From the NCBI GenBank assembly GCA_030390025.1, contig CM059441.1, positions 67,146,001 to 67,210,000 of the forward strand: a stretch of DNA of 64,000 nucleotides, given 5' to 3'. Origin of the DNA: Squalus acanthias (Eukaryota). The notes under the pieces were generated by a model. The model worked only from the letters and a program-made list of their open reading frames with translations. It did no database searches and was not told the origin of the DNA. The translations under genes and the position numbers were made by a program. Of the stretch, positions 2,842 through 63,943 are shown in pieces; the stretch's first letter is position 1, and each line of letters opens with the position of its first letter.

Positions 2842-3552
2842 CGCTACTCCCTCTAGATCTATATCCAAACCATAAATGTACACAAGTGAACAGAAGCTGT
2901 CCCAGAACCGAACCCTGTTGGACATTGTTCCTCACTGCCAACCACTCTTGAGAAACTGCCCTTAACTCATACTTTTTCCCTTCCTTGTAACCAGTTTGAT
3001 ACCCTCCCCCTAATTCCATAGTCCCTTAACCTTCTCTAATAATCTCCTGTGTGGTACCGTGCCAAAGGCTTTCTGAAAGTCCATGTTGACCACATCAACT
3101 GCATTTCCCCATCCGCCATGTCTATTAGATTTGTCAAGCGCAAGCTTGCTTTCTGAAATCCGATCTTGGCTTCTTCTAATTATTTTCTCTGTCTCGCTAT
3201 TTAGTTCCGTCTCTCGTTTTGACAACGGGTAGTACATTGGCCACCCTCCAGCCCACTCTCAATAGAATCCTGAATTATAATTTCTGCCTCCGCTATTTAT
3301 TCCCTCAGGTATCTTGGATGTATAACCTCAGGTCCCAGCAATTTTTCCATTCTTTAACTGAACAGAAACAGGCCATTTGGCCCAACCAGTCCATGCCGGC
3401 GTTTATGCTCCACCCCAGCTGCCTCCCATCCTTCCTCAACTAACTATCAGAATAACCTTCTATTCCTTTCTCCATCATGCGCTTATCTAGCTTCCCCTTA
3501 AATGCATTTATATTATTCGCCTCAACTACTTCCTGTGGTAGCAAGTTCCATC

Positions 3553-4572
3553 TCAGCCACAGGACATCGCTGCCTGGAGTTCCTCAGGGCAGTGTCCTAG
3601 GCCCACCCATCTTCAGCTGCTTCATCAATGACCTTCCCTCCATCACAAGGTCAGAAATGGGGATGTTCGCTGATGATTGCACAGTGTTGAGTTCCATTCG
3701 CAACTCCTCAGATAATGAAGCAGTCTATGCCCGCATGCAGCAAGACCTGGATGACATTCAAGCTTGGGCTGATAAGTGGCAAGTAACATACGTACCACAA
3801 AAGTGCCAGGCAATGACTATATCCAACAAGCGAGAGTTTAACCACCGCCCCTTGACATTCAAAGTCATTACCATCGCCGAATCCCCCATCAACATCATCC
3901 CGGGGGTCACCGTTGACCAGAAACTTAACTGGACCAGCCACATAAATACTGTGACAACAAGAGCAGGTCAGAGGCTGGGTATTCTGCGGCGAGTGTCTCA
4001 CCTTCTGACTCCCCAAAGCCTTTCCACTATCGACAAGGCACAAGTAAGGAGTGTGATGGAATACTCTCCACTTGCCTGGATGAGTGCAGCTCCAACAACA
4101 CTCAAGAAGCTCGACACCATCCAGGACAAAGCAGCCTGCTTGATTGGCACCCCATCCACCACCTTAAACATTCACTCCCTCCACCACCGGTGTACCGTAG
4201 CTGCAGTGTGTACCATCTACAAGATGCACTGCAGCAACTCGCCAAGGCTTCTTCGGCAGCACCTCCCAAACCCGCGACCTCTTCCACCTAGAAGGACAAG
4301 GGCAGCAGGCGCATGGGAACACCACCACCTCCAAGTTCCCCTCCAAGTCACACACCATCCTGACTTGGAAATATATCGCCGATCCTTCATTGTCACTGGG
4401 GCAAAATCCTGGAACTCACTCCCTAACAGCACTTTGGGAGCACCTTCCCCACAGGGACTGCAGCGATTTAAGGTGGCAGCTCACCACCACCTTCTCAAGG
4501 GCAATTAGCGAAGGGCAATAAATGCTGGCATTGCCAGCGACGCCCACATCTCAGGAACGAATTTAAAAAAAA
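3553..4572 (+). mobile_element. Non-LTR LINE (CR1/L2 group), 3' part with open RT frame
   Basis: GVPQGSVLGP, MFADD, WNSLP in ORF 3477-4508; tail GCAATAAATGCTGGC...GCCAGCGACGCCCACATC and oligo-A. Confidence 0.9.
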
Positions 4573-5039: not shown

Positions 5040-7940
5040 TACATAAGAACATAAGAAATAAGAGGAGTAGGCCATACGGCCCCTCGAGCCTGCTCCATCA
5101 TTCAATAAGATCATGGCTGATCATCGACCTCAACTCCAATTTCCCGCTCGATCTTCATATCCCTCGATTCCCCTAGAGTCCAAAAATCTATCAATCTCAG
5201 CCTTGAATATACTCAACGACTCAGCATGCACAGCCCTCTGGGGCAGAGAATTCCAAAGATTCACAACCCTCTGAGTGAAGAAATTCCTCCTCATCTCAGT
5301 CTTAAATGGCCTACCCCTTATCCTGAGACTATGCCCCCTAGTTCTAGAGACTCCAGCCAGAGGAAACAACCTCACAGCATCTACCTTGTCAATCCCCTTC
5401 AGAATCTTGTATGTTTCAATGAGATCACCTCTCATTCTTCTAAACTCCAGAGAGTATAGGCCCATTCTACACAATCTCTCATCATAGGACAGCCCTCTCA
5501 TCCCAGGAATCAATCTAGTGAACCTTCGCTGCACCGCCTCCAAGGCAAGTATATCCTTCCTTAGATAAGGAGACCAAAACTGTGCACAGTACTCCAGGTG
5601 TGGTCTCACCAAGGCCCTGTACAATTGTAGCAAGACTTCCTTACTCTTATACTCCAACCCCCTTGCAATAAAGGCCAACATGCCATTTGCCTTCCTTATT
5701 GCTTGCTGTACCTGCATGTTAGCTTTCTGTGTTTCTTGCACGAGGACACCCAAATCTCTCTGAACACCAACATTTGAAAGTTTCTCACCATTTAAAAAAT
5801 ATTGTTTTTCTATTCTTCCTACCAAAGTGAATAACCTCACATTTCCCTACATTATACTTCATCTGCCACCTTACTACCCACTCACTTAGTCTATCTATAT
5901 CCCTTTGCAGACTCTTTGTGTTCTCCTCACAGCTTACTGTCCCACCTAGCTTTGTATCATCAGCAAACTTGGATACTTTACACTCGGTCCCTTCATCTAG
6001 GTCATTAATATAAATTGTAAATAGCTGAGGCCCCAACATTGATCCTTGGGGCACTCCACTAGTTACAGCCTGCCAACCTGAAAAAGATCCGTTTATCCCT
6101 ACTCTCTGTTTTCTGTCTGTTAACCAATCCTCTATCTATGCTACTATATTAACTCCAACCCCATGAGCCCTAATCTTGTGTAATAATCTTTTATGTGGCA
6201 CCTTATCGAATGCCTTTTGGAAATTCAAATATACTATATCCACTGGTTCCCCTTTATCTACCCTGCTAGTTACATCCTCAAAAAATTCTAATAAATTTGT
6301 CAAACACTATTTCCCTTTCATAAAACCATGTTGACTCTGCCTAATCATGTTATGATTTTCTAAGTGCCCTGATACCACGTCCTTAACAATGGAATCCAGA
6401 ATTTTCCAGACGACTGATGTCAGGCTAACTGGCCTGTAGTTCCCTGTTTTCTCTCCCTCCTTTCTTGAATAGCGGTGTTACATTTGCGACCTTCCAATCT
6501 GCTGGTACCATTCTAGAATCTCGGGAATTTTGGAAGATCAAAACCAAAGCATCCACTATCTCTGCAGTCACCTCCTTTAGAACCCTAGGATGTAGACCGT
6601 CAGGTCCAGGGGATTTGTCGGCTTTTAGTCCCATTAGTTTCTCTAGTACTTTTTCCTCTACTTATATTAATTACGTTAAGTTCCTCACCCTCATTAGACC
6701 CTTGGTTCCCCACCATTTTTGGTATGCTTTTTGTGTCTTCTACTGTGAAGATAGATACAAAATATTTGTTTAACGTTTCTGCCATTTCCTTATTCCCCAT
6801 AATAATTTCTCCTGTCTCAGCCTCTAAGGGACTAACGTTTACTTTTGCTACTCTTTTCCTTTTTACATACTTGTAGAAACTCTTACAATCTGCTTTTATA
6901 TTTCTTGCTAGTTTTCTCATTCTTTATTTTTCCCTTTTTATCAATTTTTTGGTCAATCTTTGCTGGTTTCTGAAACTCTCCCAATCCTCAGACTTACTAT
7001 TATTCTTTGCAACATTATAAGCTTCTTCTTTCAATCTAATGCTATCCTTAACTTTAGTTAGCCACGGTTGGATCACTTTTCCCGTGGAGTTTTTATTTCT
7101 CAATGGAATGTATTTTTGTTGAGAATTATGAAATATTTCTTTAAATGCTAGCCACTGCTTATCTACCGCCATACCTTTTAATCTATTTTTCCAATCTACC
7201 TTAGCCAACTCGCCCCTCATACCTATGTAATTGGCTTTATTTAAGTTTAAGACTCTAGTTTCGGACAGGCAAGTCACTCTCAAAATTAATGTGAAATTCT
7301 ACCATATTATGATCACTCTGCCCCAGAGGACACTTTACTCGGAGATTGCTAATGAACCCTGTCTCATTGTACAATACAAGATCTAAAATAGCCTATTCCC
7401 TGGTTGGTTCCATGACATATTGTTCGAGGAAACTGTCCCGAATGCATTCCATGAACTCGTCCTCCGGACTACCTTTGCCAATTTGATTTGTCCAGTCTAT
7501 ATGAAGATTAAAGTCCCCCAAGATTATTGCATTACCTTTGTTGCAAGCTCCTACTATTTCTTGATTAATATTCTGTCCAATGGTATAGCTACTGTTAAGG
7601 GGCCTATATACTACTCCTACCAGTGTTTTCTGCCCCTTGTTATTCCTCATCTCCACCCATACTGATTCAACTTCCTGATCTTCTGAGCCGAGATCCTTTC
7701 TCGCTACTGTCCTCACGCCATCCTTTATTATCAGGGCTACTCCCCCTCCTTTTCCATTCTACCTGTCTTTTCGAAACGTTAAGTACCCTGGAACATTTAG
7801 TTCCCAACCTTGGCCACCTTGTCTCTGTAATGGCTATTAGATCAAACCTGTTTATCTCTATTTGTGCCACTAGTTTGTCTATCTTGTTACGAATGCTTCG
7901 TACATTCAGATGAAGAGCCTTTAATTTAAATTTTTACCAT
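5040..7940 (-). mobile_element. CR1 LINE, near-complete but disrupted ORF2 (AP endonuclease + RT)
   Basis: IAITET and GDFN (endonuclease), KSPGPDGLHPRVLKE, PQGSMLGP, KFADD, RPHLEYC, in several frames; TTCTTATG tail. Confidence 0.95.
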
Positions 7941-16209: not shown

Positions 16210-16320
16210 TTAGAACTGCACTGCTCCGGGAGAAATGTTAAACAGAGATGGGTCAAACGTCTGTCCTTTGAATGGTGAGCCTTCAGCATCCCAGCCTTTC
16301 TTCAGCATCTCGTGCACTTT
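16210..16320 (-). CDS. NUDCD3: NUDCD3 last coding exon
   Basis: TTCTAG|KVHEMLKKGWDAEGSPFKGQTFDPSLFNISPGAVQF-TAA; spliced CDS totals 1089 nt = 362 aa plus stop. Confidence 0.96.
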   Translation of the reverse strand, partial: KVHEMLKKGWDAEGSPFKGQTFDPSLFNISPGAVQF

Positions 16321-22895: not shown

Positions 22896-23084
22896 CGTTT
22901 CGTGGCTCTGTGGCTTGCCCTGCATTTTCTGATGATAATCAAAGGTTAGTCTGTCCAGCACCGCATGCTCCTCCTCATCCACCGTTGCCATTGAGCGCTC
23001 TTTGTTTATCTTGTCTATGTCTATAGTCTCTTCGCCTTCTAGAATTGCGTTCCACCAGTATTCCCCGTTTTTACTCAGGTTAAT
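22896..23084 (-). CDS. NUDCD3: NUDCD3 coding exon 5 (not in the ORF track)
   Basis: Manual translation: AACAG|INLSKNGEYWWNAILEGEETIDIDKINKERSMATVDEEEHAVLDRLTFDYHQKMQGKPQSHET|GTAAG; 189 nt. Confidence 0.96.
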
Positions 23085-34426: not shown

Positions 34427-35197
34427 ACATAGAAACATAGAAGATAGGAGCAGGAGTAGGGCATTCGGCCCCTCGAGCCTGCTCCGCCATTCGATGAGAT
34501 CATGGCTGATCATCCAAACTCAGTACCCTGTCCCTGCCTTCTCCCCATATCCCTTGATACCTTTCGCTTTAAGAAATATATCTAACTCATTCTTGAATAT
34601 ATTTAATGACTTGGCCTCAACTACCTTCTGTGGTAGAGAATTCCACAGGTTCACCACTCTCTGGGTGAAGAAATTCCTCCTCATTTCTGTCCTAAATGGC
34701 TTACCCGTTATCCTTAGATTATGACCCCTGGTTCTGGACTCTCCGACCATCAGGAACATTCTTCCTGCATCTAGTTTGTCCAGACCTGTCAGAATTTTAT
34801 ATGTTTCAATGAGATCCCCTCTCATTCTTCTATACTCCAGCGAGTATAAGCCCAATCGACCCAATCTCTCCTCATATGTCATTCCTGCCATCCCAGGTAT
34901 CAGCCTTGTGAATCTTCGCTGAACTCCTTCCATGGCAAGAACATCCTTCCTCAGATAAGGTGACCAAAACTGTACACAGTACTCAAGGTATGGTCTCACC
35001 AAGGCCCTGTACAACTGCAGCAGGACATCCCTGTTCCTATACTCAAACCCTTTCGCTATGAAGGCCAACATACCATTTGCCTTCTTCACCGCCTGCTGCA
35101 CCTGCATGCTTACTTTCAGCGACTGGTGCACAAGGACACCCAGGTCTCGTTGCACTTCCCCTTCTCCCAATCTATTGCCATTCAGATAATAGTCTGC
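34427..35197 (-). mobile_element. Young CR1 3' fragment
   Basis: Open 216-aa ORF 34520-35170 of the CR1 ORF2 C-terminus. Confidence 0.93.
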
Positions 35198-35784
35198 CTA
35201 GTTGGGTTTTAGATTTTGGCACCGACCGGCTCCAGTCTCACTTTCCCACCACAACTTTCTGCCCTCTCCTCCTGAAGCCATCAGCTTCTCCTGGGTATAG
35301 TTTCTCAGGCGCTGGTAGGCCATCAGTACCCCGCCCAAGAGACCATTCTTGTGTCAGCGCAGATAGCGAGTAACAGCAGGCTATTCTCCCCGAGGATAGC
35401 ACAGCCGAGCTTGATCCCAATTACACCCAACATCCATGCGCATGCTTTCCAACCGACATTACTGGATAGTGTTCTGGAGCAGGAACCCTGGCTGACCCTT
35501 CCTCCTTCTTGGCCCAGGAGTGCAGAGATCATCTGTCGCAACCCCAACTGTTGCCGCAGCCGAGATCAGTACAAAAACCTGGGACCTTCAGCGGGATGGC
35601 CGAGTGCTACACTGGACAGGGCGCCTTGACCCGGTCAGCCATCAGGGAGCTTGGCATGGTAGATCTTTGATTCTCACAGCACTGAATTTTAAACTAGTCA
35701 AAAAAGTTACATCTGCAGCACGAATAAGGTCACTCATTGGAACAGGTCAGATTCTGGTGCGGACTGCACGGGATTGGCGATTAC

Positions 35785-35908
35785 CTGTCTTCCTTTAACG
35801 ATCACTTTGGGCACCGGCACTTTCACTTCCAGGTCGGTGTAATCCTGGGACCAAGTGTAGTTCTCCCTCACAGCCCCATTGTAGCTGTCAGAATTTTCCT
35901 CACATTTC
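35785..35908 (-). CDS. NUDCD3: NUDCD3 coding exon 3 (start of CS/p23 domain)
   Basis: TTGCAG|G; KCEENSDSYNGAVRENYTWSQDYTDLEVKVPVPKVIVKGRQ; donor CAG|GTAA; 124 nt. Confidence 0.96.
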
Positions 35909-46334: not shown

Positions 46335-46792
46335 TTGGATTTATATAGCGCCTTCCACGAACACCGGACGTCTCAAAGCTTTACAGCCAATGAAGTACTT
46401 TTAAAAAAAGTGCAGTCACTGTTGTAATGTGGGACACGCGGCAGCCAATTTGCGCACAGCAAGTTTCCACAAACAGCAACGTGATAAATGGCCAGATAAT
46501 GTTTTTGTTATGTTGGTTGAGGGATAAATATTGGCCCAGGAAACCAGGGAGAACTCCCCTGCTCTTCTTCGAAATAGTGCCATGGGACCTTTTACGTCCA
46601 CCTGAGAGAGCAGACGAGACCTCGGTTTAACATCTCATCGGAAAGACGGCACCTCCGACAGAGCAGCACTCCCTCAGCACTGCACTGGAGTGTCAGCCTA
46701 GCTTTATGTGCTCGAGTCTCTGGAGTGGGACTTGAACCCACAACCTTCTAGACTCAGAGGTGAATGTGCTACCCACTGAGCCACAGCTGACA
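46335..46792 (-). mobile_element. Full-length DeuSINE starting about 48 nt into NUDCD3 intron 1
   Basis: Minus strand GTCAGCTGTGGCTCAGTGGGTAGCAC... through to the tail. Confidence 0.88.
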
Positions 46793-46809
46793 CCTAGAGA
46801 GAGAGAGAA

Positions 46810-47220
46810 GCCTTTCCCCGTGGGGCCCCCCGCACTCACCCTCAGCATCAGCTTCTCGGCCACCCCGGGCGGGAAGCCCAGCCTGTCCTCCTTGAGCACC
46901 ATCAGGCGGAAGAAGTCGGTCTTCCTGTACAAGAAGCCGAAGAAGACTTGCAGGAAGCTCTCGATCTGGCCGGCGTGCTGCAGGATGCCGAGCAGCGCCT
47001 GGTCGTACAGCTCGCTGCTCTCGGGAGGCCCGTCCATGCCGCCGGAGTCCGTCCTCCTCCACTCTCAGCCCCTTTCTTTCGCCAGCTCTCCTCTCTCTCT
47101 CTTCCCCCACAACCACTTCCGCCGGAAGGAGTCCACCGCAACGACCTTCCCTCTTACCCCCCCCTCCCAGCTTCGCCCCGAAATAAACGTTCCTGGACAA
47201 CAGACCCACGCCTGCTGGTG
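46810..47220 (-). promoter_or_regulatory. CpG-island-like promoter/first exon of NUDCD3 with paired ETS motifs
   Basis: GC- and CpG-rich patch around the ATG; ACTTCCG-CCGGAAG (two opposed ETS/GABP cores) at 47115-47128, about 80 nt upstream of the ATG. Confidence 0.65.
46840..47037 (-). CDS. NUDCD3: NudC domain-containing protein 3, coding exon 1 (66 aa)
   Basis: MDGPPESSELYDQALLGILQHAGQIESFLQVFFGFLYRKTDFFRL...GFPPGVAEKLMLR is the NudC N-terminal motif; donor AGG|GTGAGT; CpG-rich context. Confidence 0.96.
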
Positions 47221-47430: not shown

Positions 47431-49204
47431 ATAACAGAAAACGCTGGAAAAACTCAGCAGGCCAGGCAGCATCCGTGGAGAGAGAAAGAGAGTCAACGTT
47501 TCAGGTCGATGACCTTTCGTCAGAACTGTGAAGAGCCGGAAATCAAATAGATTTAAGGCCAGAGTAAAGCTGGGAAAAGGGGGAGGGGATAAAGGAACAA
47601 AGGGGGAGATGGAGAGACATTAAGAGATATGCAAGGCTAGAGGTGGTGTTAATGTGACAGATTAAGGCTGAAAGAAGTGTGAAATCCACTGGCAGAATGA
47701 AGGACATCTGCCAGCTTCTAGGAGGAAAAAAAAGGTGGGGGGGGCAAATAAAAGGGTGGAAAAAATAAAATATAAATGTGATTGGAGCTGAGGTTATGAT
47801 CTAAAATTGTTGAACTCGATATTGAGTCCAGAGGGCTGTAGCGTGCCTAAACGAAAGATGAGGTGCTGTTCCTCGAGCTTACGCTGCGCTTCCGTGGAAC
47901 AGTGTAATAGGCCGAGGACGGTGAGGTCAGAGTGGGAGTGAAGCGGTGAATTAAAGTGACAGGCCACCGGGAGCTCGGGGTCCCCCTTACGGACTGAACG
48001 GAGGTGTTCCGCAAAGCGGTCACCCAATCTGCGTTTGGTCTCCCCAATGTAGAGGAGACCACATCGTGAGCAGCGAATACAGTATACTAAATTGCAGGAA
48101 GTACAAGTAAATCGCTGTTTCACCTGGAAGGGGTGTTTGGGGCCCTGGACAGTGGGAAGAGGGGAGGTATAAGGGCATGTGTTGCATCTCCTGCGCGTGC
48201 ACGGGAAGGTGCCGGGCGAAGGGGAAGGGGTGCTGGGGGTGGTAGAGGAGTGGACTAGGGTGTCACGGAGGGAGCGGTCCCTGCGGAATGCTGAAAGGGG
48301 AGGTGAGGGGAAGATGTGTTTGGTGGTGGGATCACGCTGGAGGTGGCGGAAATGGCGGAGGATGATCCGTTGAATGTGGAGGCTGGTGGGGTGAAAGGTG
48401 AGGACAAGGGGAACCCCATCGTGGTTCCGGGAGGGAGGGAGGGGCAGGGGTGAGGGCAGAAGTGCGGGAGATAGAACGGACACGGTCGAGGGCCGTGTCG
48501 ACCACGGTAGAGGGGAATCCTCGGTTGAGGAAAAAGGAAGACATGTCGGAAGCACTGGTATGGAAGGTGGCATCATCAGAGCAGATGCGGCGGAGACGGA
48601 GAAACTGGGAGAATGGAATAGAGTCCTTACAGGAGGCGGGGTGGGAGGAAGTGTAGTCCAGGTAGCTGTGGGAGTCAGTGGGCTTGTAGTGAATGTTAGT
48701 CAATAACCTATCCCCAGAGATGGAGATGGAGAAGTCGAGGAAGGGAAGGGAAGGTGAGGGAAGGGTGGAAATTGGAAGCATAGTGAATGAAATGTTCTAG
48801 TTCAGGGCGAGAGCAGGAGACGGCACCGATACAGTCATCAATGTACCGGAAAAAGAGGTGAGGGAGGGGACCCGAGTAGGACTGGAACAAAGAGTGTTCC
48901 ACATATCCCACGAAAAGGCAGGCATAGCTAGGACCCATGCGGGTACCCATAGCAACACCTTTAATTTGGAGGAAATGGGTAGAGTCAAAGGAGAAGTTGT
49001 TCAATGTGAGAACAAGTTCAGCCAGGCGGAGGAGGGTGGTGGTGGATGGGGACTGGTTGGGCCTCTGTTCAAGGAAGAAGCGGAGCGCCCTCAGGCCATC
49101 CTGGTGGGGAATGGAGGTGTAGAGGGATTGTACGTCCATGGTGAAGAGGAGACGGTTGGGGCCGGGAAACTGGAAACTGTTAAAATGGCGGAGGGCATCG
49201 GAAG
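47431..49204 (-). mobile_element. Penelope-like retroelement (Neptune-type), 5'-truncated and frameshifted, RT + GIY-YIG endonuclease
   Basis: ORFs 48708-49223 (MDVQSLYTSIPH, GVAMGTRMGP, RYIDD), 48332-48781 (thumb, HYKPTD) and 47794-48576 (CTRRRCNTC Cys linker, LVYCIRCSRCGLLYIGET); 3' terminal repeat about 47431-47530. Confidence 0.93.
47491..47527 (-). ncRNA. Minimal type I hammerhead ribozyme in the PLE 3' repeat
   Basis: Minus strand AGTT-CTGACGA-A-AGGTC atc GACCT-GAAAC-GTT-GACT: full CUGANGA/GAAA core, 5-bp stem II, palindromic ACGU stem III, GUU triplet, 4-bp stem I. Confidence 0.8.
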
Positions 49205-49549
49205 AGTTATAAATATACCTCATTTATCTTTTTATTGCAGTCTATTTATAATTGTATCTGGTTTATTTTTTCCTTTATCAATTTAGTACTATGTATAAAA
49301 ACCCTGGAGGTTGGGAGTACAAATAATATTCATATCAGCCTAAATTTTAAAAGGCAAAGCCCACAATTATTTTGGGAATCCCCTCTGCAAGATCAAGAAG
49401 TGTGTTCCACTTGTGCTCCTCGCTTGTAACAAAAATGGTTATTTTCAGTGCTACTTAAAGCCAGCGACAATTATTAAGAACTTGCACTTACATAGCACAT
49501 ATCACATTCTTAGGATGTTCCAAGACACTTCATAATGAATGAATTACTT

Positions 49550-55572: not shown

Positions 55573-56270
55573 CATAAGAACATAAGAAATAGTAGCAGGA
55601 GTAGACCAATCGGCCCCTCGAGCCTGCTCCGCCATTCAATGAGATCATGGCTGATCTGATCCAACCTCAACTCTAAAGAACACAAGAAGCAGGAGCAGGA
55701 CCAGGCCACTCGGCCCCTGGGCCCGCTCCGCCACCCACAGGGCCTTGACCGATCCGAACTCAAACTCATGTCCAATTTCCAGCCCGCTCCCCGTAACCCC
55801 TGATTCCCTTTACTTCTAGGAAACGGTCTATTTCTGTTTTAAATTTATTTAATGAAGTAGCTTCCACAGCTTCCTGGGGTAGCAAATTCCACAGACCCAC
55901 TACCCTCTGAGTGAAAAAGTTTCTCCTCATCTCAGTTTTGAAAGAGGAGCCCCTTATTCTAAGATTATGTCCCCTAGTTCTAGTTTCACCCATCATTGGG
56001 AACATCCTCACCGCGTCCACCCGATCAAGCCCCTTCACAATCTTATATGTTTCAATAAGATCGCCTCTCATTCTTCTGAACTCCAATGAGTAGAGTCCCA
56101 ATCTACTCAACCTCTCCTCGTATGTCCACCCCCTCATCCCCGGAATTAACCGAGTGAACCTTCTTTGTACTGCCTCGAGAGCAAGTATGTCTTTTCTTAA
56201 GTATGGACACCAAAACTGTATGCAGTACTCCAGGTGCGGTCTCACCAATACCCTATACAACTGCAGCAAT
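55573..56270 (-). mobile_element. CR1 3' fragment plus a second CR1 tail, in the POLM 3' region
   Basis: Open ORF 55766-56269 of the ORF2 C-terminus; two consecutive 3' UTRs ending near 55677 and 55573. Confidence 0.9.
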
Positions 56271-56316
56271 ACCTCAGGATTTAGTCTCTGTACTTCTGCT
56301 GCTTGAATTCAGCAGA

Positions 56317-56427
<111 letters not shown>

Positions 56428-57015: not shown

Positions 57016-57099
57016 CTGTTCATTATCAAACAAAGAATGGCTGTTCAGACTCATGTGCTTGAAGTGCTTAGCGTATCTGCGTAGGTCTCGTTCAAAGAG
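57016..57099 (-). CDS. POLM: DNA polymerase mu, thumb exon (not in the ORF track)
   Basis: CTGTAG|LFERDLRRYAKHFKHMSLNSHSLFDNEQ|GTAGG; NSH motif is POLM-type; 84 nt. Confidence 0.9.
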
Positions 57100-58344: not shown

Positions 58345-58865
58345 TTCATAGAGTCATAGAGTTATACAGCACAGAAAGAGGCCCATCGTGTCCGCACCGG
58401 CCATCAAGCCCTGTCTATTCTAATCCCATTTTCCAGCACTTGGTCCGTAGCCTTGTATGCTATGGCGTTTCAAGTGCTCATCTAAATGCTTCTTGAATGT
58501 TGTGAGGGTTCCTGCCTCTACCACCCTTTCAGGCAGTGAGTTCCAGATTCCAACCACCCTCTGGGTGAAAAAGTTTTTCCTCAAATCCCCTCTAAACCTC
58601 CTGCCCCTTACCTTGAAACTATGCCCCCTGGTTATTGACCCATCTACTAAGGGGGAAAGTTCCTTTCTATCTACCCTATCTATGCCCCTCATAATTTTGT
58701 ACACCTCAATCAGGTCCCCCCTCAGCCTTCTCTGCTCTAAGGAAAACAACCTCAGCCTGTCCAGTCTCTCTTCATAGCTGAAACGCTCCGGCCCAGGTAA
58801 CATCCTGGTGAATCTCCTCTGCACCCTCTCCAATGCAATCACATCCTCCTATAGTGTGGCGACCA
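58345..58865 (-). mobile_element. CR1 3' fragment
   Basis: [16 protein letters not shown]...RKNFFTQRVVGIWNSLP. Confidence 0.9.
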
Positions 58866-61181: not shown

Positions 61182-61514
61182 CCGTGAACCTGTCCATCCC
61201 AATAAGGCATAGGCATACTGGCCAAAGGGGGCAATGACCAGGTCCACTCTCACAGCCTTCCAGTCCTTACCCCTTGCTGCAGCAGCAGTTACCGGCCGAG
61301 TCGCCCCTGCATGGCCAGCAAGTCCAATTCCCTGAGTCTCGTTCACAGCCAAAGAGTCACGATTGCTTGGTCGGTTAGGTTCTAGATTAGTTACCGCCTC
61401 CTTCTTCAGTTTGAAGATAGAAAAACATTTTGTAAAGTGATCAAATATCTCGGGCTCCTTGTTTTTCCACTTTTGGTAACTGTTGTCTATGATGTCATCA
61501 TACAGTATCAGTCC
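61182..61514 (-). CDS. POLM: DNA polymerase mu, Loop1/third catalytic Asp exon (111 aa)
   Basis: TTTAG|GLILYDDIIDNSYQKWKNKEPEIFDHFTKCFSIFKL...WKAVRVDLVIAPFGQYAYALLGWTGSR|GTAAG; 333 nt. Confidence 0.9.
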
Positions 61515-63840: not shown

Positions 63841-63943
63841 CTGGGTGGCCATCCAACTAATCACTTGGTAAACAAGACCCTCTTCCTTGCCTTCCTCTGG
63901 GTGAGTTATAAGAAAGTCAACATCATGGCCAGACTCCTCCTCT
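63841..63943 (-). CDS. POLM: DNA polymerase mu, exon with catalytic GHDVD motif (gene continues beyond window end)
   Basis: TTCAG|A EEESGHDVDFLITHPEEGKEEGLVYQVISWMATQ|GTATGC; ITHP is POLM-type (human TdT has ITSP). Confidence 0.88.

Follow-up and report, generated by a model that had tools for sequence, protein, structure and literature searches.

An ordinary POLM gene of Squalus acanthias with a recurrent active-site variant, Lys at the Arg387 position of DNA polymerase mu

The hallmark of TdT is strong template-independent activity, together with expression that is confined to developing lymphocytes. Arg387 of Pol mu touches the primer and restrains it from sliding backward, whereas the R387K exchange favours untemplated addition and primer slippage (PMC3592450). 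In the human enzyme, R387K raises terminal transferase activity up to 100-fold, and the gain is abolished when the neighbouring Phe389 is also changed (PMC4081086). The SD1 region of Pol mu was defined as 'ERS', with Arg387, from the sequences known then; the Lys of the mouse TdT counterpart QKC is K403, and both K403R and the exchange of QKC for ERS cripple free addition by mouse TdT, while Q402E lowers its activity and Q402A does not (PMC2724280). Other elements of these enzymes also bear on the balance between templated and untemplated synthesis: TdT is clearly less active once two residues are deleted from its Loop1 (PMC2724280), Asn457 of the Pol mu NSH motif is a template ligand that is needed for end joining (PMC4081086), and the Arg175 5'-phosphate pocket favours templated synthesis (PMC5622330). 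Lys325 is a ligand of the gamma-phosphate of the incoming nucleotide (PMC5557891, PMC13662279). Terminal transferase activity has also been described for a fungal Pol mu-like enzyme, and the activity therefore predates the vertebrates (PMC12828229).

The window analysed here, a stretch of 64,000 nucleotides of Squalus acanthias DNA, holds an intact shark POLM on its minus strand, of which it covers the 3' half, and the upstream exons (the 5' half) fall past the window end. Four exons, flanked by AG acceptors and GT donors, join into a single open frame of 201 residues with a stop at its end. The exon at 63841-63943, placed by alignment and spliced contigs, encodes His329 and the first two catalytic Asp residues (HDVD), with ITHP at 63898-63909. 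The main exon (61182-61514) encodes Loop1, the SD1 strand, a long insert, the third catalytic Asp in RVD (RVDLV, 61236-61250) and the GW steric gate (GWTGS, 61185-61199). The exon at 57016-57099 encodes the arginines of helix N, FERDLRR (57076-57096) and the thumb mini-loop NSH, or SD2 (57037-57045), and the last coding exon (56317-56403) contains EEEIF (56365-56379), PPQERN (56323-56340) and the stop. HDVD and RVD, the marks of a family X polymerase, are thus in frame, and the last exon matches Pfam DNA_pol_B_thumb with 35.6 bits against a cut-off of 25.

Reverse-complement translation of 61422-61442 gives DHFTKCF, with the Lys codon AAA at 61428-61430, as a reading made from the sequence alone had claimed; the remaining motifs named in that sequence-only reading were likewise recovered by translation, all on the minus strand and spread over the four exons. 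DHF.KCF occurs once in the six frames of the window and in none of 100 shuffles. This SD1 region corresponds to residues 383-389 of Pol mu (D383-F389) and 399-405 of mouse TdT. A count along the alignment with PDB 9cq3 places its Lys at the column of human Pol mu Arg387, the 'brake' position, and the same residue aligns with the Lys of mouse TdT QKC, which upholds its description as a natural R387K equivalent. Contigs from public runs, which are RNA only by software guess and carry no tissue labels, have the POLM exons joined end to end (record 15 of run X5 spans all four); they show splicing and not level or tissue. The exon pieces of runs X1 and X2 have no letter other than those of the window, and an assembly error at the Lys codon was rejected because the contigs list no difference there.

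The top matches of the main exon are annotated shark and ray POLMs (86% identity to Pristiophorus). Over the four exons, the window protein is identical to Pristiophorus POLM at 178 of 201 residues and to Heptranchias POLM at 169 of 201, compared with 50-53% identity to three shark DNTTs. Heptranchias owns both genes (P0003 and P0338), and the window protein is 84% identical to its POLM and 53% identical to its DNTT. In a gene tree of 41 rows, from which the motif's own columns were left out and alongside which a quick mixture-model tree was run, the window sequence falls within an elasmobranch POLM clade (SH-aLRT 99) whose sister is chimaera POLM (99), and the shark DNTTs lie inside a separate DNTT clade (SH-aLRT 99-100). 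AU tests reject the joining of the window sequence with all TdT (p 4e-4) and with shark TdT (p 1.2e-8); the alignment and tree that the sequence-only reading had proposed as a check thus speak against a grouping with DNTT. At a deeper level, the free ML tree sets chondrichthyan POLM beside TdT (SH-aLRT 87-89), and a monophyletic gnathostome POLM is not recovered in this tree and not rejected by the AU test (p 0.39). Chondrichthyan POLM shares Thr148 (human numbering) with TdT; the residue at this column is Pro in bony POLM and in almost every outgroup. The structure model of the orthologue P0001, as distinct from the window protein, matches Pol mu and TdT structures; this fold search does not discriminate, because the two rank alike.

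At SD2, the window has the NSH of POLM and not the DNH of TdT, which is found in all three shark DNTTs. At SD1, its TKC agrees with the x-K-C (Lys403) of TdT and departs from 'ERS' with Arg387; since many annotated POLMs do the same (frogs, salamanders and 4 of the 16 mammals listed), 'ERS' should be regarded as typical rather than defining. The GSR motif, which had been put forward as a further TdT-type mark, was rejected as a TdT marker: shark POLMs themselves vary between Q and R at position 438, and R also occurs there in turtle, ostrich and several echinoderm rows. A lungfish entry, Protopterus annectens P0028, is labelled DNA nucleotidylexotransferase-like, yet it has ERC, GSK and NSH and groups with POLM.

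NUDCD3 adjoins POLM downstream on the same strand (16264-47064, minus; identified by Pfam, PDB and motif scan), with exon-bearing stretches at approx. 46699-47064, 35776-35901, 32486, 22905-23045 and 16264-16293 (Pfam Nudc_N, E 3.7e-23; PDB 1wgv, KIAA1068, E 4.3e-19). It is a synteny marker, in accordance with the gene neighbourhood of POLM, and no part of the enzyme. In human, NUDCD3 also lies near POLM, with several genes between them, unlike the direct adjacency in the window. Shark POLM identity, the AU tests and this neighbour agree that the gene is POLM with NSH, as had been claimed, and the separate shark DNTT that the claim presupposed was found in three other sharks (P0338, P0354, P0384). 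The window also holds retroelements. A Penelope-like remnant, RT followed by GIY-YIG (47797-49223, minus strand; Pfam matches just under the cut-off), sits a short way upstream of the exon with which NUDCD3 begins. Reverse-transcriptase remnants of LINEs, of a kind usual in sharks, lie at 3456-4505 on the plus strand and at 5133-7933, 34520-35197, 55766-56308 and 58420-58848 on the minus strand; one copy begins a few bases past the POLM stop and is covered by spliced contigs as 3' UTR.

In primate numbering, checked against human, the window protein keeps the Pol mu residues His329, Asp330/332/418, Phe385, Phe389, Arg416, Gly433-Trp434, Arg442 and Arg445, as well as NSH. It differs from human Pol mu in having Lys387, Thr386, His384, Cys388, Phe382, Arg438, Glu441 and Glu324/Glu325, a Loop1 that is one residue shorter and a post-SD1 insert that is much longer. 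Like DNTT, it has DHF-x-KCF, GSR, Glu441, Asp443 and an Asp-Ile near the start of Loop1; unlike DNTT (P0338, P0354, P0384), it has NSH instead of DNH and a Loop1 of 24 instead of 26 residues, and it belongs to a separate clade. The Arg175 pocket of the shark POLM orthologues is a further difference from TdT. The elasmobranch POLMs of Pristiophorus japonicus (P0001) and Heptranchias perlo (P0003), with 84-89% identity, share with the window DHFTKCF, NSH, the 24-residue Loop1 and the 53 residues between SD1 and WKA, whereas at position 325 the window has Glu, Pristiophorus Lys and Heptranchias Asn.

Loop1, counted from the exon start to SD1 (61443-61514, minus strand), comprises 24 residues in the window, one fewer than in primate Pol mu (25) and two fewer than in the TdT of sharks and lizard (26), and is of low confidence (pLDDT<50) in the P0001 model. 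The SD1-to-WKA stretch (61263-61421, minus strand) has 53 residues; its length is 22 in Pol mu of primates, 37-40 in TdT of sharks and 70 in lamprey. This long insert, which recalls 'loop2' of Aspergillus PolX1, is probably disordered, judging from the P0001 model (pLDDT<50 across residues 407-445). In addition, POLM isoforms of Mustelus (P0023) and Stegostoma (P0030) skip Loop1 and SD1 without loss of the frame, it appears by use of an acceptor inside the SD1 exon, and are probably inactive.

The distribution of residues at column 387 was counted from best-ranked matches (62 rows, the best 150 of 8781, 120 of 1065 and 120 of 1385). Among the matches listed, Lys stands in all 15 named elasmobranch POLM species, all three shark DNTTs, coelacanth POLM, four of four named tunicates and six unnamed close relatives, both hemichordates, most protostome rows and 4 of 16 mammals (opossum P0298, brushtail possum P0287, tammar wallaby P0313 and manatee P0322). 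Arg stands, among the same matches, in the one chimaera species found, lungfish, two caecilians, 82 of 83 ray-finned POLM rows (Thr in the other), all three cyclostomes, all four amphioxus rows and all nine echinoderms, whereas Thr is found in the frogs (17 of 17) and Ser in the salamanders, and a few isolated reptiles or birds show Gln or His. Human Pol lambda, which is template-dependent, has Lys472 at this column by our own count. With Lys, Arg, Thr and Ser scattered in this way across lineages, the column toggles often. The non-Arg POLMs of manatee, marsupials and coelacanth (Lys), frogs (Thr) and salamanders (Ser) resemble that of sharks in that the Arg387 brake is gone while the POLM is normal in other respects; they differ in being independent events, and the shark Lys lies in a more ancestral-looking motif. 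Manatee POLM, with Lys on a near-human background (E-K-S), is the natural enzyme that comes closest to the R387K mutant. Frog POLM (17 rows listed, e.g., P0304, P0257 and P0068) reads DGHET at SD1, with both the near-invariant Phe385 and Arg387 lost, and, judged from the human F385G result, its terminal transferase activity should be cut.

As for earlier work, Andrade 2009 (PNAS) is the original R387K paper and may itself show natural Lys variants, and Bartl 2003 is reportedly the paper on elasmobranch TdT. A literature search that was light on subscription papers found no report of sharks or mammals whose Pol mu naturally has Lys at position 387, and the residues at issue do not occur by term in PMC3729694 (newt Pol mu) or PMC10815903. 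The natural Lys variant may already have been seen in earlier papers or in the supplementary multi-species Loop1 alignment of PMC4081086.

The Lys of sharks and rays is quite probably an innovation of their own, as far as sequence comparison can tell. An Arg-to-Lys change would have taken place on the shark-and-ray stem, later than the split from chimaeras, and would be one among several independent changes at a labile site (coelacanth, some marsupials and manatee, with Thr in frogs). DHF and the Cys of the motif, common to amphioxus and echinoderms, look old. The fixation of Lys in 15 of the 15 elasmobranchs listed suggests that it is at least tolerated under selection.

The sequence-only reading had instead proposed that the enzyme retains the pre-duplication TdT/Pol mu state. 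According to this proposal, which we consider unlikely, a Pol mu/TdT ancestor would have had Lys, kept by elasmobranch and coelacanth POLM and by TdT, and Arg would have been gained separately in chimaera, ray-finned fish, lungfish plus tetrapods, and cyclostomes. The presence of Lys, among the matches listed, in tunicates, hemichordates, coelacanth POLM and most protostome rows is consistent with such a history, as are the ancestral look of DHF and Cys and the ML tree that weakly joins chondrichthyan POLM with TdT. Six columns split TdT from bony-vertebrate POLM, and shark POLM is TdT-like at three of them (148, 387 and 443) and POLM-like at the other three. Parsimony gives a tie, 8 vs 8 steps, on three of four trees, and on the remaining one retention costs one step more. 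However, a two-state likelihood model, run with all taxa on four fixed gene trees, puts the probability that Lys has persisted without a break since the duplication at 0.00-0.09 for the three species-consistent trees and at 0.17-0.31 for the fourth, in which shark POLM is joined with TdT. These values change little when the two Lys mammals in the tree are set to missing; when the chimaera is dropped as well, they become 0.01-0.18 on the species-consistent trees and 0.61-0.66 on the POLM+TdT tree, and the likelihood result therefore leans on one holocephalan species. Retention also needs four separate Arg gains among vertebrates and has to accommodate Arg in the sister lineage (chimaera), both cyclostome lineages, amphioxus and echinoderms, and is thus not the most likely history. 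It should be noted that an ancestor with Lys would share this residue with Pol lambda, and therefore no high terminal transferase activity would be implied; the shark Lys by itself gives no view of the pre-duplication ancestor.

Taken as a whole, the explanation that we regard as on balance likely is that of a POLM with a shark-stem Lys and a somewhat looser brake, still template-directed, with Glu325 as a possible offset. Arg387 of human Pol mu holds the primer and retards its backward movement, which keeps untemplated addition in check. The shark enzyme, to judge from mammalian work, would act in NHEJ, where it would fill gaps and bridge DNA ends for the most part in a template-copying mode, and the machinery for such templated work would comprise His329, the three catalytic Asp residues, Loop1, NSH and, as seen in full-length orthologues, the Arg175/His208 5'-phosphate pocket. 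The sequence-only reading had stated that Pol mu R387K raises untemplated addition, and the increase of up to 100-fold in the human enzyme cited above bears this out. Moreover, sharks lack the Pol mu-type Glu386 and have Thr or Ala instead, so that, given the Q402 and K403 mutants of mouse TdT, the shark SD1 is TdT-permissive at two sites (Thr/Ala386 and Lys387). White-shark POLM and teleost-type TdT rows have DHFAKCF in common. By analogy with these mutants, the shark Lys probably loosens the brake somewhat, and a higher terminal transferase activity of shark POLM is plausible.

Other features speak against such a gain. The window POLM has a Loop1 two residues shorter than that of TdT and retains Asn457, which binds the template. 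The N-terminal BRCT domain and the Arg175/His208 pocket are seen in shark orthologues of 84-89% identity, the exons concerned lying outside the window, and Arg175 is missing from shark TdT. A Glu codon (GAG, 63937-63939, minus strand; placed by alignment and the X1 contig) stands at the column of Pol mu Lys325 and TdT Lys338, preceded by a Glu at the Gly324 column (63940-63942, minus strand; alignment), and the exon with Glu325 shows no differences from the run X1 contig. Lys occupies column 325 in 282 of 283 fetched motif-matching rows (isoforms included), the exception being the Asn in the POLM of Heptranchias, a hexanchiform shark, and Glu at 325 may be rarer than the Lys387 finding itself; Glu324 is also present in Pristiophorus and three rays among the fetched rows. 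A charge reversal at Lys325 should weaken nucleotide binding; engineered TdTs tolerate Gly at this site (PMC13050093). Glu325 in Squalus acanthias may offset any gain from Lys387, and the enzyme would stay a template-directed Pol mu whose brake may be looser, rather than become a second TdT.

A further possibility, which we hold to be slightly more doubtful than retention, is that Lys387 and the loss of Glu386 together release the brake, such that the enzyme acts as a second TdT, with abundant untemplated addition both during NHEJ and at the joints of V(D)J recombination. This idea draws on the activity and slippage of human R387K, on the crippled K403R and QKC-to-ERS forms of mouse TdT, on the DHFAKCF common to white-shark POLM and TdT, and on N additions being the commonest change at shark light-chain joints (PMC5192425). 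However, the 100-fold effect belongs to the human background and is gone with Phe389 changed too, Loop1 is two residues short of that of TdT, NSH takes the place of DNH, shark orthologues keep the Arg175 pocket, and the window gene has Glu at Lys325. In addition, sharks own DNTT, and the review that describes the light-chain N additions credits them to TdT (PMC5192425), so that they can be explained without POLM. In cyclostomes, TdT is apparently absent (PMC8061691).

We judge it improbable, to a slightly greater degree, that sharks and rays re-evolved a TdT-like SD1 strand in Pol mu and thereby made a repair enzyme a second N-adder beside DNTT. If this were true, the enzyme would help to build the N-rich light-chain junctions of sharks, and all somatic end joining would be more inventive. 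Release of the brake would then recur in coelacanth, marsupials and manatee, with Arg387 as a repeatedly tuned dial, and Glu325 in Squalus acanthias would be a possible compensating damper.

That the gene is DNTT, or that its motif was copied from shark DNTT via gene conversion, is extremely improbable: the exon alone does match mouse TdT over human Pol mu in the PDB (E 1.8e-14 vs 5.2e-8), but a misannotated DNTT is rejected by the two AU tests and the shark POLM/DNTT identities, including those to the two Heptranchias genes, with the NUDCD3 neighbour also against it, and conversion is rejected because the residues directly after the motif are POLM-type (T-K-C then SIF in the window, Q/E-K-C then LML/LIL in shark DNTT), so that no conversion tract is needed.

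The locus is thus an ordinary POLM with a recurrent active-site variant. The weakness of Pol mu as a terminal transferase, compared with TdT, has been put down to Arg387, and yet many annotated POLMs lack this residue, namely those of every shark and ray sampled, of coelacanth, frogs and salamanders, and of several mammals. It follows either that vertebrates differ widely in how much untemplated addition their Pol mu performs, or that the effect of the brake is context-dependent, and the shark case bears on whether enzymes other than TdT add N nucleotides in cartilaginous fish.
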